This document shows, in pieces, positions 15,200-28,456 of a stretch of 49,526 nucleotides of DNA. How positions within the stretch are numbered: the first letter of the stretch is position 1; each line of letters starts with the position of its first letter. A model generated the notes under the pieces. The model did no database searches and was not told the origin of the DNA. It saw only the letters and a list, made by a program, of their open reading frames with translations. Source of the DNA: Escherichia phage Henu7; the sequence record NC_054894.1; one strand, given 5' to 3'. The position numbers and the translations under genes were made by a program.

Positions 15200-15209
15200 A
15201 TCTATCACC

Positions 15210-15494
15210 TCAGAACGGGAAGCAACGTTTGCAAGCCGGATCAAAATCACAGCCGCAGTCATTTACAATCATGGTTGGATCGGCAAACATCGCTCCGCTT
15301 TCCATATCCATATCCATATCGCCAAGCGCATCATCCAGCGTGCGCAGTTTATAAGCAACCTCAAGCGCAGCCTCTTTATTCAGTCCAGCCGCCTCCGCCT
15401 CTTGCAGACGGGCAAAGAAACCATCTTGTACCACAATTTTCTCCTCTAAACTGGCGGCGAAATTGCCGCCTTTAAACCAATCAGGACTTACCAA
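15210..15494 (-). CDS. hypothetical acidic protein
   Basis: ORF overlapping the upstream stop; no clear RBS; DMDMDMESG acidic repeat. Confidence 0.35.
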   Translation of the reverse strand: MVSPDWFKGGNFAASLEEKIVVQDGFFARLQEAEAAGLNKEAALEVAYKLRTLDDALGDMDMDMESGAMFADPTMIVNDCGCDFDPACKRCFPF

Positions 15495-15718
15495 GCTTTC
15501 CAGGTTTCGATATACATCGAATTTTTATCCAGGAAGTCGATCACATCTTGCTTGCTGTACTGGCGCAGAGTGCAGCGCGGCGACGTTCCAACGGTGTAGC
15601 AGCCTTTACCCTCGGTGATGGTCACTTGCTTGATTTTCTCGCCTGGAATGTCGCACTTGATGATTACGCGGTGATTGCTGTCCAGGGTTTTCATGATGTT
15701 TTGGGTTTTGAGCTTCAT
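15488..15718 (-). CDS. hypothetical protein
   Basis: Preceded by a full regulatory unit; RBS AAGGAG. Confidence 0.5.
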   Translation of the reverse strand: MKLKTQNIMKTLDSNHRVIIKCDIPGEKIKQVTITEGKGCYTVGTSPRCTLRQYSKQDVIDFLDKNSMYIETWKAW

Positions 15719-15774
15719 TCGTTTCTCCTTGTTCTTTGTTGATGGCGCTACTATACCAGGCCGCAGCGCCGGAG

Positions 15775-15795
15775 TTTTAACAAAAGGTGCTATCA
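15775..15795 (-). promoter_or_regulatory. palindromic element plus hairpin plus TATAGT
   Basis: Minus strand reads GATAGCACCTTTTGTTAAAA, hairpin GGCGCTGCGGCCTGGTATAGTAGCGCC, leader, RBS. Confidence 0.45.
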
Positions 15796-15871
15796 GTTCC
15801 AGAATGAGTGGCGGGGCGCACGTTTACCATCACCGCCGTAGTGGTCATTGGCAACTGCAATCATCCAGGCG

Positions 15872-16153
15872 TTAGCGAATATCAGCAGCCGCATAAATCA
15901 CTCCTTTAATCTTCTTGATCTCGTCAACTAGCTCTTGCTCGTCGTGAATCATGGCTGGCGAGCACTCCCAACAAGCGGAGGGAAGTTTCTTGTTCTTGCC
16001 CTTGATCAGAAATCCGCCCATCAACTCCCAATTGCAGATAAGGCGATCATCACGCATATCGTACAGGTTGAACAAGTTGCGGCGCTCGCCGCTAACATAA
16101 ATCTTCATGCCATTGTTGCGGCAGAATACGCGTAATTCTTTTGTCACTCGCAT
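15872..16153 (-). CDS. hypothetical protein
   Basis: GGAGAG RBS; ATG overlaps upstream stop. Confidence 0.45.
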   Translation of the reverse strand: MRVTKELRVFCRNNGMKIYVSGERRNLFNLYDMRDDRLICNWELMGGFLIKGKNKKLPSACWECSPAMIHDEQELVDEIKKIKGVIYAAADIR

Positions 16154-16347
16154 TATTCACTCTCCAGTACGGTTACAGGATCCAGACGCTCCAGCACAAC
16201 TTTGAAGTCGGCAAAGAATGTCGGCCTACGTTCGGTTAACTCTGTATAGGTGTCAGTCGCCAGCGTTGCGCATTCACCTTCATAGCACACCACACGCTTT
16301 CCGTTCTCGCGACTGATTGCCACCACGCGATAGGTATTCTTGACCAT
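16153..16347 (-). CDS. hypothetical protein
   Basis: GGAGG RBS; ATG overlaps upstream stop. Confidence 0.45.
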   Translation of the reverse strand: MVKNTYRVVAISRENGKRVVCYEGECATLATDTYTELTERRPTFFADFKVVLERLDPVTVLESE

Positions 16348-16547
16348 TAAATAACCTCCATCACAGTATGCTCGTCACCAGCAAGTGACCAGAGAGTGTT
16401 AGTAAGTTGCTTCACTTTCCAGGTTAGGCCGGAGTGATAGCAGACCATTTCCTCAAGGTCTATTGTGATCTCAACGCCTTTCTTGAAGATCCCACGCGTC
16501 AGCTCTGGATTGCGGCGAATAACTTTAACGTCGATCTGGTCTTGCAT
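16347..16547 (-). CDS. hypothetical protein
   Basis: Start ATG 16547 with RBS CTGAGGAA and leader AACGAAAC; the longer track ORF starts at a TTG inside the palindrome. Confidence 0.45.
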   Translation of the reverse strand: MQDQIDVKVIRRNPELTRGIFKKGVEITIDLEEMVCYHSGLTWKVKQLTNTLWSLAGDEHTVMEVI

Positions 16548-16604
16548 TTTTGATTCCTCAGTTTCGTTTTGTTGAGGCAATGATAGCGCATCGCCTCTGA
16601 TTGG

Positions 16605-16625
16605 TTTTAGCAAATCGTGCTATTC
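16605..16625 (-). promoter_or_regulatory. palindromic element
   Basis: Minus strand reads GAATAGCACGATTTGCTAAAA then TATCAT hexamer and CAACAAAACGAAAC leader. Confidence 0.45.
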
Positions 16626-16887
16626 AGTTCTTAACCTGGCTCATGCGATCCATTTCACGATACCAGATAACCAAATCTTCCAGCGCCAGGAACAAGTCAG
16701 CTTTCTTTGTCTCCCTGATGGTGTCACATACCAGGTTGATATCACATTCCAGCACGCCCAGGTACTCGCCATACTGACGGCAACCTTCAATGTTGTCTGC
16801 CTTGCTGGTGCGGCGATTGTTACGCTGCGCACGGCAAATCAGGCTGATGATGTTGCTGGTTTCTTTGCTGGTGATGTGATAGGTCAT
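16624..16887 (-). CDS. hypothetical protein (first gene of leftward early operon)
   Basis: Leader CGAAACGAACTGAGGAAAACGAAA-ATG, the same pattern as rightward early genes. Confidence 0.5.
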   Translation of the reverse strand: MTYHITSKETSNIISLICRAQRNNRRTSKADNIEGCRQYGEYLGVLECDINLVCDTIRETKKADLFLALEDLVIWYREMDRMSQVKN

Positions 16888-16944
16888 TTTCGTTTTCCTC
16901 AGTTCGTTTCGATGAATGCATTATGCCAAATCCAGATCACGGAG

Positions 16945-16965
16945 TTTTAGCAAAAAGTGCTATTC
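16945..16965 (-). promoter_or_regulatory. palindromic element plus CATAAT upstream of leftward early operon
   Basis: Minus strand reads GAATAGCACTTTTTGCTAAAA, then CATAAT, then leader. Confidence 0.45.
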
Positions 16966-17253
16966 AATCGGTAGTTAGATGATTTGGTGATTTTCTGACC
17001 TGCATTTTGATGGTTAGTTTGATGTGCGTCAGCTTTTGACGAGATTTGATGATTGTTGATTAGATTTGATTGAATTTGATTGTGGGAATCATCATGGTCT
17101 GACGATGCCGTTTTTGCGCTCTCGAAAACTCCGTTCTGTTATCTTCTGTTTACACTCGTTTCCTCTTGTTACCGAAAGTACGGTGGCGTAGTTTGTTCGC
17201 GTTTTTCGCGTGGCAGAAACAAAAAAAACTTTTAATCTCCCTATAAACAACTA

Positions 17254-17296
17254 ATAAAATCAATAGTTTATTTTATATATATTATATTTGTTTTCA
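17254..17296. repeat. AT-rich conserved element, copy 1 (second copy at 47770..47815)
   Basis: 17-bp identical core ATAAAATCAATAGTTTA followed by a TTTATAT(A/G)TAT-type tract. Confidence 0.7.
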
Positions 17297-17549
17297 CTAC
17301 GTTATACTTGTTCCATATGGTATGGGGTGGTTATGGGATTTTATTATTGGTGGTATTGGTTAATTTATAGGCATGTTCCGCTCAGGATGTGTGCGATTCA
17401 TCATTTCGTTGTGGTTGCTTTGGGTGACATATACATATCTATTATGGCCTCCGAAAAAACTGTAACACCGGTAACATGGAAAAAACACGTTTTGTGGTTA
17501 AGCAAATCAGCAACTTACGACAAATTTTGTTTTTCGGCTCAAAAAAAAC

Positions 17550-17578
17550 TTGTGGAAACCGATTGTAACATGCATAAT
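17550..17578 (+). promoter_or_regulatory. candidate sigma70-type promoter for rightward early operon
   Basis: TTGTGG, 17-nt spacer, CATAAT, preceded by an A8 tract; followed by CGAAACGAACAAATGGAGG leader and ATG 17611. Confidence 0.4.
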
Positions 17579-17610
17579 GCACCCCGAAACGAACAAATGG
17601 AGGTAAAACG

Positions 17611-18036
17611 ATGTCAGATCAATCATTTGGCGATCAGTTGCGTGCAGCAGCGCGAATGTTGGCGAGTGGTGAGCGTGATGAAATCATCATGACCGACTAC
17701 CAGTTACAGCAAGCGTCCGGCAGGGAGAAAATCAACCCAAGCCATATCCGTACAACTATGGCGCGAGAGGTTCGCACCCTGGGAGCTATCAGCGTGAAGC
17801 GAATCACGGATCCGATGGGGTACGTTTGCACATTCAACCCTGACCCGAAAAAGCGAGCGATTGCCAGCGACGAGCTACCAGCAATCAAGGCGCGTGCGGC
17901 TAACAAGGCACTGAAAGCAATTGCAGACGTGATGCCAAATCTCACAGACCTGGAGGGCGAGCAGTTGCAGGGCGCTATCATTGCAGTGCAGCGCTACCAG
18001 GATTTAATCAAGAAGCAAATCAAAGAGGAGGCTTAA
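17611..18036 (+). CDS. hypothetical early protein
   Basis: RBS AAATGGAGG; first ORF of the rightward early array. Confidence 0.55.
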   Translation: MSDQSFGDQLRAAARMLASGERDEIIMTDYQLQQASGREKINPSHIRTTMAREVRTLGAISVKRITDPMGYVCTFNPDPKKRAIASDELPAIKARAANKALKAIADVMPNLTDLEGEQLQGAIIAVQRYQDLIKKQIKEEA

Positions 18037-18038
18037 TT

Positions 18039-18299
18039 ATGAGCAACGAGAAAATCGATCAGCTTGTGGACGAAATCATTGAGACGCACGACTACGCCGG
18101 ATTCAACTCTATCTTTATGATATACCCTGACGAGTGCGGTGTGACAGAAAGCGAGCTTAAAGAAGCAGTTGAGCAGGTTGAGTCCGTACTCAGAACCGAT
18201 AACCCTGACGACGAAATCTTTTCATCCTTGACCGCTTGCGATGGTGGCGGAGTGTTTGCCCTGTCATTCATCAATGCGAATACGATCTTGACCGTCTGA
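18039..18299 (+). CDS. hypothetical acidic protein
   Basis: Starts 3 nt after upstream stop; acidic composition. Confidence 0.5.
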   Translation: MSNEKIDQLVDEIIETHDYAGFNSIFMIYPDECGVTESELKEAVEQVESVLRTDNPDDEIFSSLTACDGGGVFALSFINANTILTV

Positions 18300-18306
18300 T
18301 AGGTAA

Positions 18307-18325
18307 ATAGCACTTTTTGTTAAAA
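18307..18325 (+). promoter_or_regulatory. palindromic element plus hairpin plus ATAAT
   Basis: ATAGCACTTTTTGTTAAAA, hairpin TGCCCCGCGCGAGTGGGGCA, ATAAT, leader CTCAACGAAACGAA. Confidence 0.45.
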
Positions 18326-18383
18326 CTGCCCCGCGCGAGTGGGGCATAATAGCCTCAACGAAACGAATTGAGGAGATTGCAAA

Positions 18384-18539
18384 ATGGTTACACTGATTAC
18401 CTGGGAGCACGAGAGCAGCTACGCGGTAGTACGCGAGTTTGATTCAGTAGCAGCGTGCTACAGCCTGGCCGCTAACGGCGGTTTCTACAAAGCGCAGATT
18501 GTAAACGAGTTTGGGGTTGTTGATTATGAGTTTCATTAA
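18384..18539 (+). CDS. small hypothetical protein (51 aa)
   Basis: RBS GAGGAG; not in ORF track because of length. Confidence 0.4.
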   Translation: MVTLITWEHESSYAVVREFDSVAACYSLAANGGFYKAQIVNEFGVVDYEFH

Positions 18540-18735
18540 TGCAAGCGATGTTAAGACTGGCGCAGTGTACCGCTCAAAGTACACAGATCGGCTGTGGCGC
18601 TGGGATGGTGAAACCATGTGGACTAAAGGCGCTGGCGATGTGATTTGGCATCAAAGCGGCTGGCCTCACCCAACAATGACGCGCAAGGATATTGCTTATT
18701 ATCTGGCAGTTGGAGAATTCGAGGAGGTTAAATAA
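18526..18735 (+). CDS. hypothetical Trp-rich protein
   Basis: ATG 18526 overlapping the end of the preceding small ORF. Confidence 0.45.
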   Translation: MSFINASDVKTGAVYRSKYTDRLWRWDGETMWTKGAGDVIWHQSGWPHPTMTRKDIAYYLAVGEFEEVK

Positions 18736-18923
18736 TGGTCAAGACAGTACACCCTGACGCGTGCGGCGACGAAATGAGAATCTATGAGAGCCATAACAAG
18801 ATCTATATTGATGGATGCTTTGGCGGCGACAGAATCTCGTGGCGTGGCAGCTATACGCCAAAACAAGCGCGGGAGATTGCAAAGCGACTTAATGACCTGG
18901 CAGACATTATGGATGGCAAATAA
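18735..18923 (+). CDS. hypothetical protein
   Basis: RBS GAGGAGG; ATG overlaps upstream stop. Confidence 0.5.
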   Translation: MVKTVHPDACGDEMRIYESHNKIYIDGCFGGDRISWRGSYTPKQAREIAKRLNDLADIMDGK

Positions 18924-19273
18924 TGCAAATCACCGCACAAGCACGCAACTATGCACTCAAGCACGGCGTGCATATCTACGGCCTGACCAATGAGCAGAGC
19001 CGCGCCCTGGTTTTCTACGATATCGACAGCGGCACAAAGCTATGCACATACAAGAGCTACAGCGATGATAACCCATTGCAGAAGTCGCTCAACTACAAGA
19101 TGAAGCCGGAAACCTGGCAAGCGATGCCGGATTATATCCGCACGGCTCAGGGTGTGCAAAAGGCAATCGAGGCGATGGTTGCAACTGGCACGGCGCGACT
19201 GCTGGACGAGGACGAGCTAGCGGAAGCACGCAACAAGATCCTGGCGCGGTCAACGGGAGTTGAGATCCTATGA
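18923..19273 (+). CDS. hypothetical protein
   Basis: ATG overlaps upstream stop (TAATG). Confidence 0.5.
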   Translation: MQITAQARNYALKHGVHIYGLTNEQSRALVFYDIDSGTKLCTYKSYSDDNPLQKSLNYKMKPETWQAMPDYIRTAQGVQKAIEAMVATGTARLLDEDELAEARNKILARSTGVEIL

Positions 19274-19333
19274 GCAGTTGGCACAATGAGCACGTAATGC
19301 AATTCTACCGCCAAAGGATAAAGAAAATCCTCA

Positions 19334-19352
19334 ATAGCACGAATTGCTAAAA
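19334..19352 (+). promoter_or_regulatory. palindromic element plus hairpin containing TATAGT
   Basis: ATAGCACGAATTGCTAAAA, hairpin GGGGTTGCGC-TATAGT-AACCCC, leader ATCGAAACGAAAC. Confidence 0.45.
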
Positions 19353-19413
19353 CACCAGATCGGGGTTGCGCTATAGTAACCCCATCGAAACGAAACACGC
19401 TGAGGAGCACAAA

Positions 19414-19581
19414 ATGAAATCTCGCAAATACCGCAATATCTTCAACGGCCTGACCTACTGGCTGGAGAACGGAAAAGTTATGGTGCAGAAGAACTACGTG
19501 ATCAGGGAGTCGCTCCTCTCTGGAAGCGAGTTCTTTGTGGCGGTTGCCCGTGACATTCTGGTACTGATTGAGGAGGAATAA
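19414..19581 (+). CDS. hypothetical protein (55 aa)
   Basis: RBS GAGGAG after conserved leader. Confidence 0.45.
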   Translation: MKSRKYRNIFNGLTYWLENGKVMVQKNYVIRESLLSGSEFFVAVARDILVLIEEE

Positions 19582-19584
19582 TAA

Positions 19585-19827
19585 ATGCTGTCAATTCGAA
19601 ATTGGTTTATGCGCCTCATTGGGAAAGAGGTTGGGGCTTTCGGTTATAACATCCCTGCAAACTTCAAGCGTGCTTGCCCTGGCAACTCCAGCGGGGTTTA
19701 TTGGGAAATGCCAGACGGCACATTCTGGTTCACTGTAATTTCTGGAACGTCAATCCAGGTTAGTGAGCGCGGCTATGAGCGCGGAACGTGGCTTACAGCA
19801 ATGCTGGAAGTAGGGGAGGAATTTTAA
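19585..19827 (+). CDS. hypothetical protein
   Basis: RBS GAGGAGG. Confidence 0.5.
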   Translation: MLSIRNWFMRLIGKEVGAFGYNIPANFKRACPGNSSGVYWEMPDGTFWFTVISGTSIQVSERGYERGTWLTAMLEVGEEF

Positions 19828-20360
19828 TGATCAAGTTTGAGATTTGGGGTTATACATACTATCTGCGCGGCACTTACGGCGTTGCAATCGTTGACCTGGA
19901 CGGCACACTGAGCGACGGTTCGCACCGATTGCACCTGCTACCAACAAAGGACTTGCACCTCACCGAAAGCTGGAGCGAGTTTAACAAGGCGGCTATTGAC
20001 GACAAGCCGATCCAGAGCACGATTGATGTTGTGCGTAACCTTTGGCGTGCTGGGATGGGAGTAGTTATCCTGACTGGTCGCAGTGACGAGGTTGAAACAG
20101 ACACTATCCTTTGGCTAGACCGCCACAAGGTGAAATATGACTGGCTTATCATGCGCCGCGCGGAGGACAACCGCAAGGACACCGTTATCAAAGAGGAAGT
20201 GTTGCGTGCAATCGGCCTGCATCATATTACGTGCGCCTTTGATGATTCGCCAAATGTGATCAACCACTTCCGCAGCCTTGGAATCACAACCTATCAGGTG
20301 ACGGAATACGATAAGCCGCATTCTCATTTACAAAGTCACGGCGTGGAGGAGTTGAAATGA
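19827..20360 (+). CDS. HAD-superfamily phosphatase (nucleotidase or polynucleotide 3'-phosphatase-like)
   Basis: HAD motif I IVDLDGTLSDG; downstream ILTGR and FDDSPN resemble HAD motifs II to IV; start ATG 19827 overlaps upstream stop. Confidence 0.6.
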   Translation: MIKFEIWGYTYYLRGTYGVAIVDLDGTLSDGSHRLHLLPTKDLHLTESWSEFNKAAIDDKPIQSTIDVVRNLWRAGMGVVILTGRSDEVETDTILWLDRHKVKYDWLIMRRAEDNRKDTVIKEEVLRAIGLHHITCAFDDSPNVINHFRSLGITTYQVTEYDKPHSHLQSHGVEELK

Positions 20361-20512
20361 TTAGCGCATGGATTTTGGTATCGATCTCATATTACGGTGG
20401 GTTGCAGCCAATCGAATTTACCAGCCACAGTGCTTGCGTGGAGGCGCTAGAGGTTATCAAAAATAATACTCCTGGTAGCTGGTCTAACACTTATGTTTGC
20501 GTGAAGAAGTAA
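20357..20512 (+). CDS. small hypothetical protein with hydrophobic N-terminus (51 aa)
   Basis: ATG overlaps upstream stop (ATGA); N-terminus ISAWILVSISYYGGL. Confidence 0.4.
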   Translation: MISAWILVSISYYGGLQPIEFTSHSACVEALEVIKNNTPGSWSNTYVCVKK

Positions 20513-20524
20513 AGGGGCTGAGCA

Positions 20525-20740
20525 ATGATTATTTCACACAACGTTGAACCAAGCGCAAACACTGCGCGTGATATGATTGCCGGAATGCCGCCAAAATCTC
20601 ACAGAATTGTACGTGTACGCGGTTATAACTTCAACGTAAGCCAAACACTCAAGGAAATTTTAGCCTTGCCAGAGGTCGATACAGCGCTTGTGGGAGTGCA
20701 TACAAATGAGTATGTTTCTTTCCACATTGTGACGAAATAG
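20525..20740 (+). CDS. hypothetical protein
   Basis: RBS AAAGGGG; stop TAG lies inside the next palindromic element. Confidence 0.5.
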   Translation: MIISHNVEPSANTARDMIAGMPPKSHRIVRVRGYNFNVSQTLKEILALPEVDTALVGVHTNEYVSFHIVTK

Positions 20741-20755
20741 CACGAATTGCTAAAA
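20737..20755 (+). promoter_or_regulatory. palindromic element plus TATAAT
   Basis: ATAGCACGAATTGCTAAAA, GC-rich segment, TATAAT, leader CCAACCAACGAGGAG. Confidence 0.45.
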
Positions 20756-20812
20756 CGCGCTCCGACAGGGGCGCTATAATTCACCCATACCAACCAACGA
20801 GGAGCAATAAAA

Positions 20813-21058
20813 ATGGAACAAGTAAAAGTTAAGCTAATTTCCAACGGTGGCTATAATGGTTTGAAACACCTTTCATTCCCAATTGTAGTTGATGGATTTG
20901 TGCATCCGGTTCTTGGTTACGTTGATGTGACAATGCGCGAGCTTGAGCGAGTCGGTTATGACTTTGAAAAGGGGCAGATCGGAGAAATTGCAGACTGCGC
21001 GAAAGATAGTGACTCTCTTACATTCTTCCAGGGTGGCGAGTGCGAGGTGTTGAAATGA
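20813..21058 (+). CDS. hypothetical protein
   Basis: RBS GAGGAG. Confidence 0.5.
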   Translation: MEQVKVKLISNGGYNGLKHLSFPIVVDGFVHPVLGYVDVTMRELERVGYDFEKGQIGEIADCAKDSDSLTFFQGGECEVLK

Positions 21059-21285
21059 AATTCCAGATCTTCAAAGCTATTGACAAAATCGACGGCGAGC
21101 TTTCACTTTTCATGTTCGACGAGGAAAACAACTACACTGTTATTGACTACTCGCCGGAAATGATTGGGCGCATGATTCGTGATATCAAGGCTGGCGGGGG
21201 CTGCCACTGGAGCGATAGCGCAAACGAAACTCCGCGCCGTGACGACATGCTTGATGCAGTTTTAATGTGTGAGTTTGAAGCATGA
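21055..21285 (+). CDS. hypothetical protein
   Basis: ATG overlaps upstream stop (ATGA). Confidence 0.45.
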   Translation: MKFQIFKAIDKIDGELSLFMFDEENNYTVIDYSPEMIGRMIRDIKAGGGCHWSDSANETPRRDDMLDAVLMCEFEA

Positions 21286-21473
21286 AGTGCATCAGGTCAA
21301 CATACGATCTATTCAAGGCGGGTGAAAGTTACCCGCTAATTGAGAAAGGCCAGGCTGGGCGGTTCACGTTGTACGAATACACAGACGCGAAAGGCTGGGT
21401 TTACACGTTCGGCCTCGACGAGAACGGCGAGAACGAAACAGACGGCAATTTCATTAAATTTACAAAGGAGTAA
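21282..21473 (+). CDS. hypothetical protein
   Basis: ATG overlaps upstream stop (ATGA). Confidence 0.45.
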   Translation: MKCIRSTYDLFKAGESYPLIEKGQAGRFTLYEYTDAKGWVYTFGLDENGENETDGNFIKFTKE

Positions 21474-21477
21474 TAAG

Positions 21478-21708
21478 ATGATTGAGATCAAATTCGATGG
21501 CAACTCTAAGCCATTCAACGGCGTACAGATCCACAAAGATGCAACACACGCGGTAGCGGGTCGCAATTTCGGTACTTACTTTAAACTCAATGGCGAATGG
21601 TATTTCACAGTTTTCACTTGTCACGCGCTGAAAGTGGCGGTTATGTCTCATGACTTTGATATCAGCGATCACATCATGGACGGCGCAGAAATCACAGAGT
21701 TTAAATAG
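21478..21708 (+). CDS. hypothetical protein
   Basis: RBS AAAGGAG; stop TAG lies inside the next palindromic element. Confidence 0.5.
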   Translation: MIEIKFDGNSKPFNGVQIHKDATHAVAGRNFGTYFKLNGEWYFTVFTCHALKVAVMSHDFDISDHIMDGAEITEFK

Positions 21709-21723
21709 CACTTTTTGCTAAAG
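21705..21723 (+). promoter_or_regulatory. palindromic element plus hairpin containing TATAGT (module copy A)
   Basis: ATAGCACTTTTTGCTAAAG, hairpin GAGGCCATTGG-TATAGT-GGCCTC, leader TTGAAAGCAACCAA. Confidence 0.45.
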
Positions 21724-21786
21724 ACTTTCCGCGAGGCCATTGGTATAGTGGCCTCATTGAAAGCAACCAATCAAAAGGAAAACGAA

Positions 21787-22122
21787 ATGAAATTAGTTCG
21801 CAATGCGGTGTATGGCCTGGAAACAAGCGGCGGAATGATCCAGGTTTTTCATGTGGCAAACAACGGACACATTCAGATCGCGATGTATCGTGACGCTCGC
21901 GGCGCTTGCCAGCCTGGTTATAGTGGCGAAGTGCGAATGATGTTCAGCATGATTCAGCGGCAAGCTGATCACATCAATAACCACGATCACTGGATCGAAG
22001 ATCTCAAACGCAAAGGTGTGATGATAGCAAGTCACGTTATAGACCCGATGAAGCTCACCTCTCGCGACTATCGCGAAATGGCGAGAAAGGCAGCAAAGAA
22101 ACTGAATATCACGAATTGCTAA
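21787..22122 (+). CDS. hypothetical protein
   Basis: Start ATG 21787 with RBS AAAGGAAAACGAA; the longer track ORF reads through the regulatory unit. Confidence 0.5.
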   Translation: MKLVRNAVYGLETSGGMIQVFHVANNGHIQIAMYRDARGACQPGYSGEVRMMFSMIQRQADHINNHDHWIEDLKRKGVMIASHVIDPMKLTSRDYREMARKAAKKLNITNC

Positions 22123-22124
22123 AG
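22106..22124 (+). promoter_or_regulatory. palindromic element (degenerate left half) plus hairpin containing TATAGT (module copy B)
   Basis: ATATCACGAATTGCTAAAG followed by a near-identical copy of the 21724..21780 module. Confidence 0.4.
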
Positions 22125-22187
22125 ACTTTCCGCGAGGCCATTGCTATAGTGGCCTCATTGAAAGCAACCACGCAAACAGGAGATAAA

Positions 22188-22346
22188 ATGCGTAACTTTG
22201 AGAAAATCCGCACTAACAAAGACCGCCGCGCTGCTGGTGAGATTGTAGATTCACACCGTCGCCGCAAGAAAACACAAAAGCGCGGGAGTGCGGCAAAGCG
22301 CATGGATTTGGAACAGCTTCAAACTAACTACAAGGTAGGTCGATAA
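22188..22346 (+). CDS. small highly basic protein (52 aa)
   Basis: RBS CAGGAG; Arg/Lys-rich sequence KDRRAAGEIVDSHRRRKKTQKRGSAAKR. Confidence 0.45.
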   Translation: MRNFEKIRTNKDRRAAGEIVDSHRRRKKTQKRGSAAKRMDLEQLQTNYKVGR

Positions 22347-22915
22347 TGAAAAAGGTAATTATTCTCAACGCACCGCCAGGCGCTGGCAAGGACACAATCG
22401 GCAGCCTGATCTGCAAGCACGCTCCGCAATACGTTGTTAAGCGCTCATTCAAAGAGCCAATGTTTAAGATCGCAAAGGCTATGTTGGGCGATTATCGTTT
22501 CGGCCTGTTTATGCAAGCGTATGACGACAGGGGGCAGAAAGAAAGAGCGCAATCGTTCCTGAATGGTAAATCACCTCGCCAGTTTATGATCTGGATTAGC
22601 GAGGACGTGATAAAACCTCAGTTTGGGAATCAGTATTTTGGTTCGGTAATGGCTGAGGCGGTGAGAGATAGCCAAGTGCCAGTTGTCATTACTGACGGAG
22701 GTTTTCCAGATGAAGTTAAGCCACTGGTTAGTGCTGGCATTCAGGTAAACATTTGCCGATTGCACCGCACAGGATATGCGTTTGATGGTGACAGCCGCGA
22801 TTATCTAAACCTGGATGGCTACCATCACCGCATTGTTACGCGAGATTACATTCTTGTGCATGGTGATCCAATGCACACGGTAGACCAGATTTGCGAGGAT
22901 ATATTAAGTGATTAG
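22346..22915 (+). CDS. P-loop nucleotide kinase (dNMP-kinase-like)
   Basis: Walker A NAPPGAGKDT, resembling the GxGKDT P-loop of phage deoxynucleoside-monophosphate kinases (from memory; not confirmed by search); ATG overlaps upstream stop. Confidence 0.55.
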   Translation: MKKVIILNAPPGAGKDTIGSLICKHAPQYVVKRSFKEPMFKIAKAMLGDYRFGLFMQAYDDRGQKERAQSFLNGKSPRQFMIWISEDVIKPQFGNQYFGSVMAEAVRDSQVPVVITDGGFPDEVKPLVSAGIQVNICRLHRTGYAFDGDSRDYLNLDGYHHRIVTRDYILVHGDPMHTVDQICEDILSD

Positions 22916-23011
22916 CACACCGAACGATCCAAAAGAGCCGTTTGACTTCCACAAGGCAGCCGTTATCGGCCTTACAATCCTGACTGTCATTTACACTGCA
23001 AGAGGTATTTT

Positions 23012-23209
23012 ATGGCTTCTAACACACTAAAGCGAATCGGCGTTATCATGCTAATTATCGGAGGGTCATTGCTAACAGAGCCAGGTTTTGCAAACACGGC
23101 TGGAGGTATGGCGCTGTTAATAGGCGGTCTTATTGGTGGCTACATGGACGGCGTAAAGGCTGGTCGGCGCGAGGCGTTCGGAGGCGAAGATAAAAATCCG
23201 ATCAAATAG
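23012..23209 (+). CDS. small membrane protein (two predicted transmembrane segments)
   Basis: RBS AAGAGG; hydrophobic stretches IGVIMLIIGGSLL and GMALLIGGLIGGYM. Confidence 0.5.
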   Translation: MASNTLKRIGVIMLIIGGSLLTEPGFANTAGGMALLIGGLIGGYMDGVKAGRREAFGGEDKNPIK

Positions 23210-23224
23210 CACGAATTGCTAAAA
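23206..23224 (+). promoter_or_regulatory. palindromic element plus hairpin (module copy C)
   Basis: ATAGCACGAATTGCTAAAA followed by a sequence related to module copies A and B, with TAAAGT. Confidence 0.4.
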
Positions 23225-23290
23225 CTTCCGCGAGGGCATTTGGTAAAGTGTCCTCATTGAAGCAAAGCAACCAATCAAGGAGATAACGAA

Positions 23291-23569
23291 ATGGCTACTA
23301 TCCGCAAACACCTGGTAAACGCATTCGAGAACGTAGGCGAGCGCTACGGCTGGGATGATGGACTGAAAACACCGTACACGGCACGCCGTCAAGGTTTCAA
23401 CTCACTGCGCGAGTGGGCGCGTTGCATGGCAGCTAACTACATGCCGGAGAACTGGCAACTTATGCCTGACTCGCTGCGCGAAATGATCGAAGAAGCACAG
23501 GCGGCAGGTGTGCCACTCACTCAGCATGATTTTGACGACTACGCAGAGGAAGAAATTTTATGCTGGTGA
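23291..23569 (+). CDS. hypothetical protein
   Basis: RBS AAGGAG. Confidence 0.5.
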   Translation: MATIRKHLVNAFENVGERYGWDDGLKTPYTARRQGFNSLREWARCMAANYMPENWQLMPDSLREMIEEAQAAGVPLTQHDFDDYAEEEILCW

Positions 23570-23754
23570 AAATCCGCACGGATTATGACGACTCGCCGTG
23601 GATAGCGGCTGGTAAGATTTACGAGGCGGTATTGGTCAAAACAGGCCGCTACGCAGGAACGTATAAGTTTATTGGGGAGTTAGGCTCCCCGTGCTACACA
23701 AGACTTGAGCACTCTGTGCATATCAACGGAAAAGATTGGGAGATTGTAGAATGA
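23560..23754 (+). CDS. hypothetical protein
   Basis: Overlaps the upstream ORF by 10 nt. Confidence 0.45.
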   Translation: MLVKIRTDYDDSPWIAAGKIYEAVLVKTGRYAGTYKFIGELGSPCYTRLEHSVHINGKDWEIVE

Positions 23755-24206
23755 AATATTATGTACGCCCTACTGTGGACGGTGAAAACTTTACTGCTGG
23801 CAAGCTCTACGAGATCCAGCGTTGTTTCGGTGGCGGTCGCTTTGTCGTGCTAAACGATGCAAAGGAGGAAATCATTGTGCGGTGCGATGGTATCGCGTCG
23901 GCTCGCCTGAATTGGCGCGGGAGATTTGAGTGTGTGAGCATTCCAAGTGCGCAAGAAGCAGTTGGGTCGGCACAGCAAGCGGCGGCGCAAGCCTTTCGGG
24001 ATATGTGTAAGGGTAGCGGATGGCGCATTGAGAAAGGCGGGGTGTTTATCGCAAGCAGTAGTTTCAAGGCGGCAGATAAAGATCCAAATGTCGAAGTCCT
24101 GGAAAAGCTGCGTGAAATCCTGCGCGTACCGGATGGTGAGAACATCCTGACACATGCGAAAGTTGTGCGCGTGCTGGCTGACGGGTTAATCAACCTCCAA
24201 AAGTAA
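23751..24206 (+). CDS. hypothetical protein
   Basis: ATG 23751 overlaps upstream stop (ATGA). Confidence 0.5.
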   Translation: MKYYVRPTVDGENFTAGKLYEIQRCFGGGRFVVLNDAKEEIIVRCDGIASARLNWRGRFECVSIPSAQEAVGSAQQAAAQAFRDMCKGSGWRIEKGGVFIASSSFKAADKDPNVEVLEKLREILRVPDGENILTHAKVVRVLADGLINLQK

Positions 24207-24207
24207 A

Positions 24208-24226
24208 ATAGCACTTTTTGCTAAAA
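24208..24226 (+). promoter_or_regulatory. palindromic element plus hairpin containing TATAGT
   Basis: ATAGCACTTTTTGCTAAAA, hairpin GGGGTAGGCTGG-TATAGT-TACCCC, leader ATCGAAACGAAAC. Confidence 0.45.
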
Positions 24227-24282
24227 CTCCGATGGGGTAGGCTGGTATAGTTACCCCATCGAAACGAAACGGAGATATCAAA

Positions 24283-24501
24283 ATGTCAGTATTTACAGAA
24301 AGCTACTTTGAAGCCCGTCGCACTTACGGCGCAATCATGGCGGGTTGCCAGTATGAGCTTGTGGCAACCGATGATGGATATGGTCTCGTGATTGACGATT
24401 GCGGCACTTGCTACGAGGTGACTTTCGATAAGTATGATCCAGATGTGGCAATGCTGAAAAATGCACCACTGATTAAATTTGACCGTGTGGAGGAAGAATG
24501 A
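24283..24501 (+). CDS. hypothetical protein
   Basis: RBS ACGGAG after conserved leader. Confidence 0.5.
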   Translation: MSVFTESYFEARRTYGAIMAGCQYELVATDDGYGLVIDDCGTCYEVTFDKYDPDVAMLKNAPLIKFDRVEEE

Positions 24502-24758
24502 TCCAGATTAACCTTTCAGTAGAGCAAGCGCGAAAACTCCTTGAGTCCCTGGGGTGGCGCATCGACATTGGCAACATTTCCGCATGTCACATTGACGCTG
24601 ATGTTGCAAAGGAAATTTTTATGCAGCTTGAGCAAAAGATGATGCCAGCAGGAACCGAACAGGCAAATCTTGCGGCATGGCGTGCAGAAGCTGGTTACAC
24701 TGCAAAAGCTGTCGAGGATTGGAAGCGTAAAAATGAACTTATGGAGGGATTTGAATGA
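24498..24758 (+). CDS. hypothetical protein
   Basis: ATG overlaps upstream stop (ATGA). Confidence 0.5.
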   Translation: MIQINLSVEQARKLLESLGWRIDIGNISACHIDADVAKEIFMQLEQKMMPAGTEQANLAAWRAEAGYTAKAVEDWKRKNELMEGFE

Positions 24759-25075
24759 TTTTCGTACACACATACAAGATCGGAACCAACGAGAACAAGA
24801 AGGAGCGCCGCGCCATTTGGGATACCGAGGAGAAAGCGTTGGCGCAGCAGCGAGTTTTAGGTGGCGTTGTTCAGGCGTTCGAATCGGTGGAGAATCTCGC
24901 AGCAAACGAGTATTACAAAGACGTTATCATTGACGAGGTGGCAACAATAATCGACGAAATGAGCACAGACGCGCCAGGCTCGCCACGAGAGCTTGAGCCA
25001 GGTTCGGCGGCGTGGGATATCTACAAAGTTAAGACGCTGAATAACATTAGCGCTCTACTTGACGAAATTAATTAA
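24755..25075 (+). CDS. hypothetical acidic protein
   Basis: ATG overlaps upstream stop (ATGA). Confidence 0.5.
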   Translation: MIFVHTYKIGTNENKKERRAIWDTEEKALAQQRVLGGVVQAFESVENLAANEYYKDVIIDEVATIIDEMSTDAPGSPRELEPGSAAWDIYKVKTLNNISALLDEIN

Positions 25076-25141
25076 AATTAGATAGTGTTTAAAGCGCCTC
25101 AGAGCGATTATAAGAGGCGCAAAAATTGGAGGTGCGATTGC

Positions 25142-25270
25142 ATGGATAACTACGAAAAACCGTCTCAGTGGTGCGCACGCAAGCAGGAGGAGGCACTTGA
25201 GCGAGGAGACCAGAGAGCGTCTTTAAATTATTTTCAGATGTTCCAACTTTGGCAGAGCAGAGGACTATAA
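25142..25270 (+). CDS. small hypothetical protein (42 aa)
   Basis: RBS GGAGGTG before ATG 25142; track ORF 25085 has no RBS. Confidence 0.4.
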   Translation: MDNYEKPSQWCARKQEEALERGDQRASLNYFQMFQLWQSRGL

Positions 25271-25271
25271 A

Positions 25272-25502
25272 ATGTTCGGATTGAATGAGGCAGAATTCAA
25301 CATCGTCAAGCGTGCGGCAAAAGATTGCGTAAACGAGATCGCTGATCGCATTGAGCAGAAGGACGAGAAATATGATCGCATTGCTGCGGGTATTATCTGC
25401 AAACACTATCAGCCGATTAGCACTCTTCTGACGAAAACGCAGTTTATATGGCTCGCCGGATATCTGCGCGGAAGGTGGGGAAAGAATTTTGACCGCGAAT
25501 GA
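25272..25502 (+). CDS. hypothetical protein
   Basis: Starts 2 nt after the upstream stop. Confidence 0.45.
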   Translation: MFGLNEAEFNIVKRAAKDCVNEIADRIEQKDEKYDRIAAGIICKHYQPISTLLTKTQFIWLAGYLRGRWGKNFDRE

Positions 25503-25644
25503 TTGACGTCACGGCTCTGATTGGTTAACCTAAGCCCCGTAAACATAAGAGGCTAAAACGAGCAACGCGCCAGGCGATACTGGCAACTACAGCGCCGCGC
25601 TGGTTATTCAACCGTAAGACGCGGCGTTTTAACAGGAGAAAGCA

Positions 25645-25812
25645 ATGAAACGATATCCAGAAGAAACAGCCAAAGTGACCATCATCGTAGAGCGAAACGG
25701 CGTTAAGACTCGCTACAAGAAACGATTCAAGAAAGGCGAGGCGATGTTAGGCCGAATCTCTGACTTCATGATCAAGATCCAAGAGGATAAGCCAGATGAA
25801 GTGGAAAGTTAA
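25645..25812 (+). CDS. small basic hypothetical protein (55 aa)
   Basis: RBS CAGGAGA; not in ORF track. Confidence 0.4.
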   Translation: MKRYPEETAKVTIIVERNGVKTRYKKRFKKGEAMLGRISDFMIKIQEDKPDEVES

Positions 25813-25981
25813 GCTGACCATCCGGCGAATGGGGCGACAATGCCGCTCATGCAAGCAAGTTTTTGAATGCGAGGTTTCAGCCTCAAACGAGGTAGAGGCG
25901 GCGCAGTTTGCAAAGGAGCTTTCTGGCGCAGATCCAGAAACACATAAATTTTCAATCGAGTATTTAAGGAGCTTATCATGA
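25796..25981 (+). CDS. hypothetical Cys-containing protein
   Basis: ORF overlapping the previous small ORF; CRSC...FEC motif. Confidence 0.4.
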   Translation: MKWKVKLTIRRMGRQCRSCKQVFECEVSASNEVEAAQFAKELSGADPETHKFSIEYLRSLS

Positions 25982-26211
25982 TCTTAGGTTTTGTAATTGG
26001 ATTCATTGCCGCTATCGTTATGGTTATGGTTATCGGCGGAGCAGCGCAGAAATACGCAATCAAAAAAGGCTGGTTTGCCTCCGCTATCTGGATCGAGAAA
26101 GAGAAGCGCTGGAAGGTGCGCGGTCGATTCCTCAGCGTGGCATCAAAGATTCATACTGGCATCCTGGAAGAGTACCGCTCAGGACGTAAAACCGTCAAAT
26201 ACGTAGATTAA
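25978..26211 (+). CDS. small membrane protein
   Basis: N-terminal TMD ILGFVIGFIAAIVMVMVIGG; ATG overlaps upstream stop. Confidence 0.5.
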   Translation: MILGFVIGFIAAIVMVMVIGGAAQKYAIKKGWFASAIWIEKEKRWKVRGRFLSVASKIHTGILEEYRSGRKTVKYVD

Positions 26212-26215
26212 CCTA

Positions 26216-26241
26216 AGCCCCGCGTTTGCGGGGTTTTTTTG
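26216..26241 (+). terminator. intrinsic terminator ending rightward early operon
   Basis: Hairpin CCCCGCGTTTGCGGGG followed by TTTTTTT. Confidence 0.75.
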
Positions 26242-26245: not shown

Positions 26246-26254
26246 TGTTATAAT
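26246..26254 (+). promoter_or_regulatory. extended -10-like element TGTTATAAT upstream of terminase genes
   Basis: TGnTATAAT match 27 nt upstream of terS ATG; the downstream GCCTCC...GGAGGC inverted repeat could sequester the RBS. Confidence 0.35.
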
Positions 26255-26280
26255 TGGCCTCCAACAAGAGGAGGCTAACC

Positions 26281-26813: not shown

Positions 26814-28385
26814 ATGCTTATATGGGAAGATTTAACAGTGGCGCAGAAACGCGCCATTAAAGAAATGAGTGAATACTCTTTTGAGAAGATGATCCGAATC
26901 TGGTTCCAGTTGCTACAGGGTCAGAAATTCCTGGGTAACTGGCATTTCAGTTATTTGTGTCACGAGGTGGAGAAAATCATTTCCGGCGAGTCGCAAAACG
27001 TGATCTTTAACATCACGCCAGGCTCAGGCAAAACTGAGGTTTTCTCGATCCATATGTCGCCCTATGCGTCACTGAAAAGCAGGAAGGTGCGAAACCTCAA
27101 CCTGTCATTCTCTGATGGGCTTGTCCAGCAGAACAGCAACCGGATAAAAGAAATTATAGGCTCTCCAGAGTGGCAAGAGTTATGGCCTGGCAAGCTGGCA
27201 AAAGCAAGCGCAAAAGATCTGATTGTTCAGGACGGCAACGGCAAGGTTAAATTGCAGGTCAACTCTCGCTCCATCGGCGGCCAGGTAACGGGTTTGCGTG
27301 GCGGCTATATGGATGATGGATTTACCGGAATGTTGGTACTTGACGATCCAGATAAACCTGACGACATGTTTTCAAAGGTGCGGCGCGAAGCGATTCACAA
27401 CCGCCTAAAAAACACCGTCCGATCTCGTCGAATGAAGGACACAACGCCTATCGTGATGGTTCAGCAGCGGCTACACGTCAACGATTCGACGTGGTTTATG
27501 ACGAGCGGCGGCATGGGCGGCATTGAGTTTAAAGTTGTGAGCATTCCGGCGCTGGTCACGAAAGAGTATGGCGATTCGCTCCCTGATTGGTTAAAACCAG
27601 AGTTTGAGCGTGACGTGCTGAATAGCGATCCAGTTTACATTGACGGCGTGGCGCACTACTCATTCTGGCCTGCAAAGGAGAGTGCAAAGGACTTGCTCTC
27701 GCTACGCGAAGCTGATCCATATACTTTTGCGTCTCAGTACCAGCAGCAGCCAATAGCGCTGGGTGGCAACGTATTCAAGGTGGATTGGTTCCAGTTTTAC
27801 GGCGACGGCGAGAAATGCACGCTGCCTAAACCGGATCGCTTTGAATATACGTTTATCACTGGCGATACTGCGCAGAAAGCCGGAGAGCTTAACGACTACT
27901 CTGTTTTCTGTTATTGGGGCATGTTCAAGAATCGCGTTTACTTCATTGACGGCATCCGTGGAAAGTGGGAGGCTCCAGAACTTGAAACCAACTTCAAGGC
28001 GTTTGTCAATCAATGCTGGAAGCGTAATAAAGAGTGCGGAAGCTTGCGACGGATCCACATAGAGGACAAAGCGAGCGGTACGGGTCTGATTCAGGGGGCG
28101 CAAAAGAGCTTACCTATTGATATAAATCCCGTTCAGCGAAGCACGGACAAAGTTACCCGCGCAATGGATGCCGCGCCAGTTATGCGAGCAGGACGCGTTG
28201 CGCTGCCAGAGAGTCACCCGATGTTAAACGAGATTCTCGCAGAGGTAGCAGCTTTCACTTTCGACGACTCGCACCCGAACGACGATATCGTAGATAACAT
28301 CGTTGATGCTGTTAACGTTGAAATGAACCTGGCAGACGATCCAGTAGCGCGAATGAAAAAGCTTGCTGGGCTACGGAAGAAATAG
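26814..28385 (+). CDS. terminase large subunit
   Basis: 523 aa; P-loop-like ITPGSGKTE; acidic nuclease-type C-terminal half; followed by portal gene. Confidence 0.75.
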   Translation: MLIWEDLTVAQKRAIKEMSEYSFEKMIRIWFQLLQGQKFLGNWHFSYLCHEVEKIISGESQNVIFNITPGSGKTEVFSIHMSPYASLKSRKVRNLNLSFSDGLVQQNSNRIKEIIGSPEWQELWPGKLAKASAKDLIVQDGNGKVKLQVNSRSIGGQVTGLRGGYMDDGFTGMLVLDDPDKPDDMFSKVRREAIHNRLKNTVRSRRMKDTTPIVMVQQRLHVNDSTWFMTSGGMGGIEFKVVSIPALVTKEYGDSLPDWLKPEFERDVLNSDPVYIDGVAHYSFWPAKESAKDLLSLREADPYTFASQYQQQPIALGGNVFKVDWFQFYGDGEKCTLPKPDRFEYTFITGDTAQKAGELNDYSVFCYWGMFKNRVYFIDGIRGKWEAPELETNFKAFVNQCWKRNKECGSLRRIHIEDKASGTGLIQGAQKSLPIDINPVQRSTDKVTRAMDAAPVMRAGRVALPESHPMLNEILAEVAAFTFDDSHPNDDIVDNIVDAVNVEMNLADDPVARMKKLAGLRKK

Positions 28386-28400
28386 CACGAATTGCTAAAA
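28382..28400 (+). promoter_or_regulatory. palindromic element between terminase and portal genes
   Basis: ATAGCACGAATTGCTAAAA, then terminator-like hairpin GGCTGGACTTTTCCAGCC plus T-run at 28413..28440. Confidence 0.4.
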
Positions 28401-28456
28401 GCGTGTACAATGAAGGCTGGACTTTTCCAGCCTTTTTTATTATGGGAGATCAGATA

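Follow-up and report, generated by a model that had tools for sequence, protein, structure and literature searches.

What holds together the many small genes that T1-like phages carry next to their terminase genes, and what are these genes for? We take up this question in Escherichia phage Henu7 (sequence record NC_054894.1). The window, by which we mean its whole sequence of 49,526 nucleotides (nt) and to which all positions below refer, covers the genome of this T1-like siphovirus (Drexlerviridae, Tempevirinae; Henuseptimavirus-like) in full, and positions 17611-26211 of its plus strand are filled by an array of small open reading frames (ORFs) punctuated by a short repeated unit. We read this array, with a probability of about 0.6, as a set of accessory genes divided into short operons by cassettes, each of which would combine a promoter, a hairpin and a linker for gene exchange.

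The array is the usual pac-proximal accessory (hyperplastic) region of T1-like phages, situated between a divergent control region and the terminase genes. Sequence matches to it occur in 392 phage records, the best of them being IsaakIselin (Bas10), Enterobacter phage AS5 and JohannLBurckhardt, with about 90% identity and 81-84% coverage in 7-8 pieces. These records, like T1, TLS and Rtp, hold an equivalent array of small ORFs in the same position, running from a non-coding divergent region through the array to TerS; at the 3' flank, an annotated terminator precedes TerS in T1, and TerS follows in TLS and Rtp. A preliminary description of this DNA had singled out the region as the likeliest place for undescribed functions, but it is not unexplored: T1, TLS, Rtp and IsaakIselin have this array annotated, it is matched in the 392 records, and the repeated unit has been published for TLS (PMC11447400). 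Neither the region nor its repeat is thus new to the T1-like family, and the phage itself falls in a known genus-level group. What we add is modest: a promoter geometry, a covarying hairpin, gene exchange linked to the cassette and three annotation corrections.

The array is compact. The ORF list and a review of start sites yield 31 plus-strand ORFs of 40-189 amino acids (g01 to g31), each with a Shine-Dalgarno-like motif 5-12 nt 5' of its start; coding sequence takes up 7875 of the 8601 nt (92%), and 16 of the 30 gene junctions overlap, by 1 nt, by 4 nt (the ATGA type) or by more. A 32nd gene, stp, was absent from the original list, whose cut-off was 30 amino acids; with 26 it therefore falls below. 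In Pfam and PHROGs, 26 of the 32 ORFs match only a domain of unknown function (DUF), an unnamed PHROG or nothing at all; a search of the larger ORFs against NCBIfam returned no names, and neither Rfam families nor tRNAs were found in the array region. The picture of some 30 small, tightly coupled genes, mostly without recognisable domains, is borne out by these counts. The layout is one of eight short operons: g01-g02, followed by seven modules, each led by a cassette (g03-g06 with stp; g07-g11; g12-g15; g16; g17-g20; g21-g23; g24-g31). The stronger claim, that each ORF is gated by a unit, stands in so far as the cassettes look like promoters; it fails for g01 and g02, which lie 5' of the first unit, and for two internal gaps of the last sub-operon (24283-26211), where no unit is found.

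The units are copies of a 21-nt direct repeat, aaATAGCACnnnTTGnTAAAA, whose consensus we recomputed and found to be identical to the published TLS repeat. The seven positions proposed for them in the array (18307, 19334, 20737, 21705, 22106, 23206 and 24208) are all exact, and each copy has at most one mismatch to the consensus. At this threshold the window holds 21 copies, and AS5, IsaakIselin, TLS, T1 and Rtp hold 18-21, oriented with the genes. They form three blocks, each oriented like the genes around it, on the plus strand at 2957-8816, on the minus strand at 13791-16963 and on the plus strand again at 18307-24208, with a few more elsewhere. The report on TLS gives 21 copies, oriented with transcription and about 76 nt 5' of start codons, and places the repeat also in T1, Rtp and Rogue1 (PMC11447400, 2024). 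Consensus, copy number (21 against 21), orientation, intergenic location and distance to the start thus agree, and we see no difference in the repeat itself. Its authors leave the function undecided between stoperators, enhancer sites and UP elements, and in its accessible text a -10 element at +38, a covarying stem-loop and a role in gene exchange go unmentioned (PMC11447400).

What, then, does a unit consist of? Its 21-nt core, aaATAGCAC-N3-TTGnTAAAA, contains the imperfect palindrome TAGCA-N5-TGCTA and spans -52 to -31. At +37 to +39 from the first A of ATAGCAC stands a hexamer resembling a -10 element (TATAAT, TATAGT or CATAAT) in 66 of the 79 units of the window, TLS, T1 and Rtp, where chance would give 6.1% (p about 1e-66), and in many units TGn precedes it, as in TGnTATAGT, giving the extended -10 form. 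A leader follows, made of the conserved A-rich CAtCGAAACGAA and a Shine-Dalgarno motif, so that the ATG lies 75-85 nt from the core and the whole cassette measures about 80 nt. The preliminary description was right that repeated units punctuate the array; they are, however, not simple palindromes but oriented, composite cassettes of promoter type. A standard sigma70 promoter scan missed all of them, because 22 nt separate the TTGCTA of the core from the hexamer; there is no -35 element at 16-18 nt. We rejected TTGCTA as a -35 element on account of this spacer. A sigma54 promoter was likewise rejected: TAGCAC-N3-TTGC has AG for the GG of TGGCAC-N5-TTGC, its spacing is 2 nt short, and a sigma70-type -10 stands at a fixed distance.

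The cassettes are also tightly interlocked with the genes before them. The stop codons of g11, g15 and g20 (20738-20740, 21706-21708 and 23207-23209) are the TAG of ATAGCAC, so that each of these genes ends inside the next promoter cassette. Similarly, the last five codons and the stop of stp are the core of unit 2, AATAGCACGAATTGCTAA, and the C terminus of g16, NITNC followed by stop, is the core of unit 5; the two share the pattern N(S/I)TNC-stop.

The ATAGCAC core is shared with the promoters of the replication genes and missing from the terminator-promoter composites of the late region, from which we conclude that it probably marks a temporal class. Three such late composites, at 26226, 40428 and 42564, have a true terminator and, within about 10 nt of it, an extended -10 (TGnTATAAT), with no ATAGCAC core; the extended -10 sequences are TGTTATAAT (26246-26278), TGCTACAAT and TGCTATAAT (40428-40456 and 42564-42592). 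In the first of these, a hairpin in the 5' untranslated region, GGCCTCC/GGAGGCT, pairs with the Shine-Dalgarno motif of TerS. Calling the unit-led genes early or middle seems reasonable on this pattern, and we infer early expression for the array. In the unit after TerL (28382-28450, plus strand), a genuine terminator, GAAGGCTGGA-cttt-TCCAGCCTTTTTT, separates the core from a TATTAT hexamer, so that this unit seems to stand halfway from the early-type cassette to the late-type composite.

Assuming a transcription start some 7 nt 3' of the hexamer, the centre of the dyad TAGCA-N5-TGCTA would fall at about -42, the geometry of a class II activator site. Sites of class II activators (CRP, FNR, lambda cI at PRM) are centred near -42 and overlap the place of the -35 element. 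The unit dyad resembles them in lying about 41.5-42 bp 5' of the predicted start, at the place of the missing -35, and differs in that its half-site TAGCA with N5 matches no nameable factor and in that the start is a predicted one. In the mechanism that we favour, host sigma70 RNA polymerase would start at each cassette without a -35 contact, and a dimeric protein would dock at the core and set the strength or the timing of expression; this could be a regulator of the phage or the alpha subunits of the polymerase. A candidate regulator lies elsewhere in the window: a putative helix-turn-helix protein of 146 amino acids with a basic N-terminal tract (4063-4500, minus strand), encoded between the units at 4076 (minus) and 4514 (plus). 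It is conserved family-wide between primase and helicase and annotated as a transcriptional regulator in T1 (gp23), TLS and Rtp (Rtp52), and its phyletic distribution makes it the best candidate for binding the core.

The same observations can be turned into a different account, in which the core is an operator or stoperator: a phage repressor would bind TAGCA-N5-TGCTA as a dimer at about 20 sites and shut operons down, or block read-through, at a set time. The core is indeed an inverted repeat, absent from the late composites, and is conserved beyond the needs of an UP element, with invariant G/C positions, across three subfamilies with different hosts; a conserved helix-turn-helix gene stands between divergent units in T1, TLS, Rtp and the window, and stoperators are among the proposals of the TLS report (PMC11447400). 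The helix-turn-helix match is, however, sub-threshold, and a centre at -42 is the classical position of a class II activator, not of a repressor. The stoperators of mycobacteriophage L5 are asymmetric sites for the immunity repressor of a temperate phage, scattered in transcription units, where they block elongation. The units differ in being dyad-symmetric and in keeping fixed distances to the -10 hexamer and the start codon, and the annotations of the relatives contain no lysogeny genes. We therefore consider a repressor site unlikely, while keeping a dimeric protein at the core within the favoured mechanism.

Between core and leader, each unit carries an inverted repeat of its own, whose sequence differs from unit to unit. 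The best stem has at least 7 bp in 58% of the window units and in 9% of random 45-nt windows (p = 4e-9). We compared 60 non-redundant units from four genomes with chimeras made of the left half of one unit and the right half of another: the native units fold at -11.6 kcal/mol on average, the arm-swapped chimeras at -7.1, and none of 2000 permutations reached the native mean, which shows that the arms of the stem covary. Compensatory double substitutions are found in orthologous units, for example GAGGCCATT/AGTGGCCTC against GAGGACATT/AGTGTCCTC. Folds of the sense strand are more stable than those of the antisense strand (-11.6 and -9.4 kcal/mol, respectively; p = 7e-6), and 70 of 587 pairs (12%) are G-U. 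Both findings favour a sense molecule in single-stranded form over a protein site on duplex DNA or a symmetric cruciform. In 42 of the 60 units the 5' half of the -10 hexamer lies within the stem-loop, and in the other 18 the stem ends at the hexamer. Since the 5' arm lies upstream of the predicted start and no terminators stand between the operons, RNA reading through from the upstream operon would be the simplest source of the sense molecule. In such RNA the stem-loop could attenuate transcription or protect the 3' end of the upstream mRNA, insulating neighbouring operons from each other. An antisense terminator, in which the hairpin is followed by GUUUUAGC on the other strand, was considered and is disfavoured by the better fold of the sense strand.

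Could the stem-loop act in DNA instead? The non-template strand, or a cruciform, might present the -10 in or near a loop and so help or hinder the open complex in a manner dependent on supercoiling, loosely like the hairpin promoters known from phage N4. Reaching from about -24 to +1, the two arms lie on either side of the -10, the 5' arm is outside the unit's own transcript, and a better-folding non-template (sense) strand fits single-stranded DNA as well as RNA. However, T-7 of the hexamer, and often A-9 and G-8, would be paired in the stem, which would oppose binding by sigma region 2, and 18 of the 60 units have their entire hairpin 5' of the -10. A cruciform, moreover, needs both strands paired, while the G-T bias points to one strand, and with no terminators between the operons read-through RNA supplies a sense strand more simply. 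We regard an action at the DNA level as very unlikely.

A plainer account dispenses with special mechanisms altogether: the core would be an UP-like, A/T-phased element for the alpha subunits of RNA polymerase, placed before promoters of the extended -10 kind, and the stem-loops would be weak terminators of the upstream operons, squeezed into the spacer by the compactness of the genome. The A-tracts of the core are phased at about 10 bp (aaAT.., TTTTT, AAAA), many units have TGnTATAGT, the late-region composites place true terminators directly before TGnTATAAT, and UP elements are among the options given in the TLS report (PMC11447400). The T1 record, too, annotates several hairpins abutting the -10 as rho-independent terminators (T1 38973-39001, 39998-40024 and 41980-42007). 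Yet UP elements require neither the invariant GCAC/GC positions nor dyad symmetry, and the distance from core to -10 is fixed within 1 nt, suggesting a stereospecific protein contact. Most of the array hairpins lack a U-tract, which makes classical termination unlikely, and 42 of 60 enclose the -10 instead of preceding the promoter. Ordinary promoters and terminators are therefore a possible explanation of the cassettes, but in our judgement an improbable one.

How the array varies between phages was followed by tblastn of its ORFs against eight relatives, the comparison of accessory genes that had been proposed at the outset. Beyond the genus, g09, g28 and g30 are kept in TLS, T1 and Rtp, g18, g25 and g29 in TLS and T1, and g01 in TLS only; many array ORFs are kept within the genus. 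By contrast, g10 and g16 are missing in all five close relatives, and g03-g05, g12 and g24 have been swapped or have diverged strongly, although the phages compared share about 90% identity. Edges of blastn gaps coincide with units at 18295, 18365/18387, 20819-20825, 21790/22104 and 24284-24286. The clearest case is g16. The units on either side of it, 4 and 5, are 81% identical over 97 nt (repeat family D8), and relatives without g16 have a unit followed directly by g17; the TLS homolog, gp07, is likewise a single gene between units, at another position of its array. In all 7 of the 7 phages that have it, the g16 family comes first after a unit, and in 4 to 5 of them units stand on both sides of it. 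In a similar way, g24 is swapped in IsaakIselin, JohannLBurckhardt and Samwise, and its Rtp homolog stands behind a unit in another region of the genome. These two cases speak more clearly than the statistics; together they suggest that gene swaps among relatives often begin at units. With the same 20-80 nt present at each boundary, the cassettes could act as portable homology by which single genes or short operons are exchanged between phages. The first gene after a cassette is most often the one exchanged, which makes g03, g12, g16 and g24, along with g10, the best candidates for host-specific functions.

Such a role is reminiscent of the PeSLs (promoter-early stem-loop cassettes) of T4-like phages, repeated promoter and stem-loop motifs that lie in hyperplastic regions, bracket ORFans and mediate modular shuffling, and whose promoter activity, terminator activity and mini-circles, products of recombination from one cassette to another, have been shown experimentally (PMC2839356, PMC4122927). 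Both are short intergenic repeats in which a stem-loop goes together with a promoter of sigma70 type and, upstream, an A/T-rich stretch, the T1-like cassette being known here from sequence; both cluster among small ORFans, bracket ORFs between two copies and coincide with indels or replacements between relatives. They differ in phage family and consensus, and the T1-like cassette lacks a -35 and has a palindromic core at about -42. Its stem-loop overlaps the -10 rather than standing beside the promoter, and neither a polyG/polyC motif nor a U-tract is present. With no -35, a stem-loop in a different place and no U-tract, the T1-like cassette is an analogue of the PeSLs, the nearest one known to us, and not a member of the group.

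Several points weigh against the reading of the array as operons delimited by such cassettes. The units have no -35 and several also lack the TG of an extended -10, so that on their own they might be weak promoters. The Cro/YdaS-like match of the helix-turn-helix candidate for binding the core is weak, falling below the Pfam thresholds; the structural model of g01, the first protein of the array, gives only weak winged-helix-like matches, with Z no higher than 6.3. The unit hairpins are not followed by a U-tract, and their role as attenuator or stabiliser is a guess. The enrichment of breakpoints at units is modest and at best suggestive (5 of 24 distinct breakpoints by a strict definition of the unit span, against 7.6% of the sequence, p = 0.03), many breakpoints lie at ordinary gene junctions, for example at g10, and the lower conservation of genes that come first after a unit is a trend (53% against 78% mean identity, p = 0.054). 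A literature search on T1-like phages found no data on transcript 5' ends, timing or reporters. Finally, parts of the cassette anatomy may already have been described in the genome papers on T1 (2004) and Rtp (2006).

A bolder version of our reading makes speculation enticing, though we hold it to be on the unlikely side. The Drexlerviridae would possess a transcription code of their own, in which sigma70 promoters without a -35 are served by a dimeric phage factor at about -42; the -10, set in a covarying stem-loop, would make initiation at each operon depend on how the preceding one ends, through read-through RNA or folding of the non-template strand; and the cassettes would be mobile linkers that move single accessory genes (g16, g12 and g24) from phage to phage and from one genome region to another. 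Together, they would form a second PeSL-like system that arose independently and works by a different mechanism.

In the array itself, all on the plus strand, the genes and units are arranged as follows. The first gene, g01 (17611..18036), has no unit 5' of it and encodes 141 amino acids with DUF7174; its model runs alpha-beta-alpha-alpha-beta-beta, followed by a helical hairpin. It is followed by g02 (18039..18299), an acidic protein of 86 amino acids in no family. Unit 1 (18305..18383) has the core AATAGCACTTTTTGTTAAAAC and a hairpin, TGCCCCGC/GTGGGGCA, which abuts a CATAAT -10; its 5' untranslated region contains CAACGAAACGAA and a Shine-Dalgarno motif. Behind it stand g03 (18384..18539, 51 amino acids, DUF7170), g04 (18526..18735, 69, phrog_18659), g05 (18735..18923, 62), g06 (18923..19273, 116) and, coupled to g06 by ATGA, stp (19270..19350). 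In unit 2 (19332..19413; core AATAGCACGAATTGCTAAAAC) the hairpin GGGGTTGC/GTAACCCC encloses TATAGT. The module that it leads consists of g07 (19414..19581, 55 amino acids), g08 (19585..19827, 80, with a weak match to DUF7274), g09 (19827..20360, 177), g10 (20357..20512, 51) and g11 (20525..20740, 71).

In unit 3 (20735..20812) the hairpin GCGCTCC/GGGGCGC abuts TATAAT. Its first gene is g12 (20813..21058, 81 amino acids), which shares 38-49% identity with its diverged counterparts in relatives; g13 (21055..21285, 76), g14 (21282..21473, 63) and g15 (21478..21708, 76, DUF7274) follow. Unit 4 (21703..21786) has the hairpin GAGGCCATT/AGTGGCCTC, enclosing TGGTATAGT and folding at -19.4 kcal/mol (z -4.2), and leads g16 (21787..22122, 111 amino acids, phrog_8382) as its only gene. 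Unit 5 (22104..22187; core AATATCACGAATTGCTAAAG), the duplicate of unit 4, leads g17 (22188..22346, 52 amino acids), g18 (22346..22915, 189), g19 (22908..23030, 40, with a GTG start) and g20 (23012..23209, 65). In unit 6 (23204..23290) the hairpin GAGGGCA/TGTCCTC encloses TGGTAAAGT, and g21 (23291..23569, 92 amino acids), g22 (23560..23754, 64) and g23 (23751..24206, 151) come after it; g23 is variable in its N-terminal part and conserved in its C-terminal 44 amino acids (phrog_13504). Unit 7 (24206..24282), in which GATGGGGTA/TACCCCATC again encloses TGGTATAGT (-19.4 kcal/mol, z -3.7), leads the longest module: g24 (24283..24501, 72 amino acids), g25 (24498..24758, 86, DUF7180), g26 (24755..25075, 106, phrog_11192), g27 (25142..25270, 42, phrog_1312), g28 (25272..25502, 76, phrog_303), g29 (25645..25812, 55, phrog_6666), g30 (25796..25981, 61, phrog_2919) and g31 (25978..26211, 77, DUF7299).

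Control regions other than units lie before, within and behind the array. The divergent non-coding region at 16980..17610, which is 630 nt long and precedes the array genes, has iteron-like repeats (TTTGAT/GATTTGAT) at 17020-17085, a very AT-rich tract at 17220-17300 and, before g01, a promoter-like core that resembles that of a unit but lacks the ATAGCAC palindrome: CATAAT at 17572, followed by GCACCCCGAAACGAA and GGAGG. In the T1 record, the first array gene comes about 540 nt after the start of the sequence, and pac (AGATTT) is placed in the corresponding region by the TLS report (PMC11447400); on this basis the region is probably pac together with a control region. The last module is interrupted at 25504..25632 by a control point that is not a unit; here TTGACG-17-TAACCT resembles a sigma70 site, and a hairpin rich in GC runs into UUUU. 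The control point lies before g29 in a 142-nt gap that is kept in relatives; 25560-25632 folds at -29 kcal/mol, and no Rfam match was found for 25504-25632. It could be an internal attenuator or a small RNA. The array closes with an intrinsic terminator at 26215..26241 (AAGCCCCGC-GUUU-GCGGGGUUU and a U-tract), whose 9-bp stem with 6 G-C pairs, followed by U7, folds at -15.6 kcal/mol; the strong terminator predicted for this place is clearly there.

Which of the array proteins can be given a function? One is Stp (MSSWHNEHVMQFYRQRIKKILNSTNC), of the Stp / anticodon-nuclease-activator family, which came to light when annotated Stp peptides of Rtp, TLS and BubbaBully were used as tblastn queries. 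It matches PF08133 with 36.1 bits against a cut-off of 25, residues 1-18 aligning to profile positions 1-18 of 26, and is 92% identical to TLS gp05 'stp'; most related GenBank records leave it unannotated. T4 Stp is an inhibitor of EcoprrI, a type Ic restriction enzyme, and sets off the anticodon nuclease PrrC as well (PMC1484252, PMC2610378). By homology, stp is the only array gene with a clear counter-defence role; inhibition of EcoprrI and activation of PrrC are activities shown for the T4 protein only.

The HAD phosphatase and the P-loop kinase noted from the sequence are both real. The phosphatase, g09, is a stand-alone 3'-phosphatase of Pnkp type (PF25109, 75.8 bits) with a DLDGT motif of the DxDxT type at residues 23-27, and its PDB matches are phosphatase domains (Pnkp1, 4xrp, 1.8e-8; T4 Pnk, 1ltq, 3e-3). 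It has no N-terminal P-loop 5'-kinase domain, so that the database label 'polynucleotide kinase' overstates its function. The kinase, g18, has a P-loop kinase fold closest to T4 gp1, a deoxynucleoside monophosphate kinase, with a Walker A motif of the GKDT type (GAGKDT). Compared with the T4 circuit of Stp, PrrC and Pnk-Rnl1, the array Stp has the same length (26 amino acids) and the conserved N-terminal 18 residues, and g09 is a homolog of the phosphatase domain of T4 Pnk; by contrast, we found neither a polynucleotide 5'-kinase domain nor an RNA ligase, and g18 is of the gp1 type. A complete tRNA-repair pathway is therefore not evident. Genes for a HAD phosphatase and a gp1-type kinase are adjacent, with a 4-nt overlap, in Webervirus K52PH129C1 (L011 1995-3082) and in the Aeromonas phage phiA014L of the Autographiviridae (L010 1953-3145), where they sit in DNA-metabolism clusters; in the window, about 2 kb of small ORFs split g09 from g18. 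An adjacent, translationally coupled pair has been reported from other phages (PMC13164509), and a 2026 paper reads the pairing of phosphatase and deoxynucleoside monophosphate kinase as a matter of nucleotide supply. We considered g09 and g18 as the halves of a split Pnkp and rejected this, given the adjacent pairs in DNA-metabolism clusters elsewhere, the published reading as nucleotide supply and the roughly 2 kb between the two genes here. From their homologies, both look like enzymes of nucleic-acid or nucleotide metabolism.

Less can be said of the others. The highly basic 52-residue protein singled out in the preliminary description, g17, indeed has an isoelectric point of 11.5 and resembles T7 gp1.1 through a marginal match to PF08200 (23.2 bits against a cut-off of 21, residues 1-31). 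Both predicted small membrane proteins, g20 and g31, have hydrophobic segments of transmembrane type by hydropathy, strongly so at the N terminus of g31, and g19, with one such segment, joins them as a third. Some of the roughly 25 remaining proteins are probably host-takeover or anti-defence factors.

Is the array then chiefly a reservoir of early-expressed host-takeover and anti-defence proteins, as was first proposed? Stp is present; even at about 90% identity between phages, g03-g05, g10, g12, g16 and g24 turn out to be exchanged or missing; the genes are small, have no structural or replication functions and share their units with replication-gene promoters; and variable early regions of other phages hold anti-defence genes (bioRxiv 10.1101/2023.04.06.535777). 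On the other side, only 1 of the 32 ORFs has a counter-defence assignment, the two enzymes g09 and g18 look metabolic, and several ORFs are kept across the family (g28, g30 and g09; g18, g25 and g29; g01), as would fit core functions. The proposal of anti-defence content is right as to Stp, and a reservoir of this kind seems to us a real possibility, if somewhat short of an even chance. A search of the literature on any of the Drexlerviridae found no transcriptome, essentiality map or anti-defence screen that could be applied here; HIDEN-SEQ covers T4, Bas37 and Bas54 only.

Two further repetitive segments of the window lie far from the array. Positions 2071-2546 are dense in direct repeats with periods of 21 nt and 126 nt (families D4, D6, D10 and D12), and their counterpart in relatives is made up of minus-strand genes near the tail-fibre gene; the segment looks like repetitive protein-coding sequence. 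At 45311-45553, a 36-nt motif occurs three times, 99-108 nt apart (family D14), within the segment that corresponds to a J-like tail tip gene.

Finally, we would like to place the array into the context of the phages that carry it. T1-like phages are among the commonest coliphages and Klebsiella phages and are present in therapy collections, and about half of their genes are dark matter. In this one, the accessory array is now mapped as eight modules delimited by putative promoters, and its annotation is corrected in three places: stp is added, the 'polynucleotide kinase' is a phosphatase only, and the P-loop protein is a gp1-type deoxynucleoside monophosphate kinase. The conserved cassette provides a search pattern for accessory genes, as well as a natural site of insertion and expression for phage engineering. 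If the hairpin within the promoter proves to be functional, the cassette would be a compact example of how neighbouring operons are coupled.

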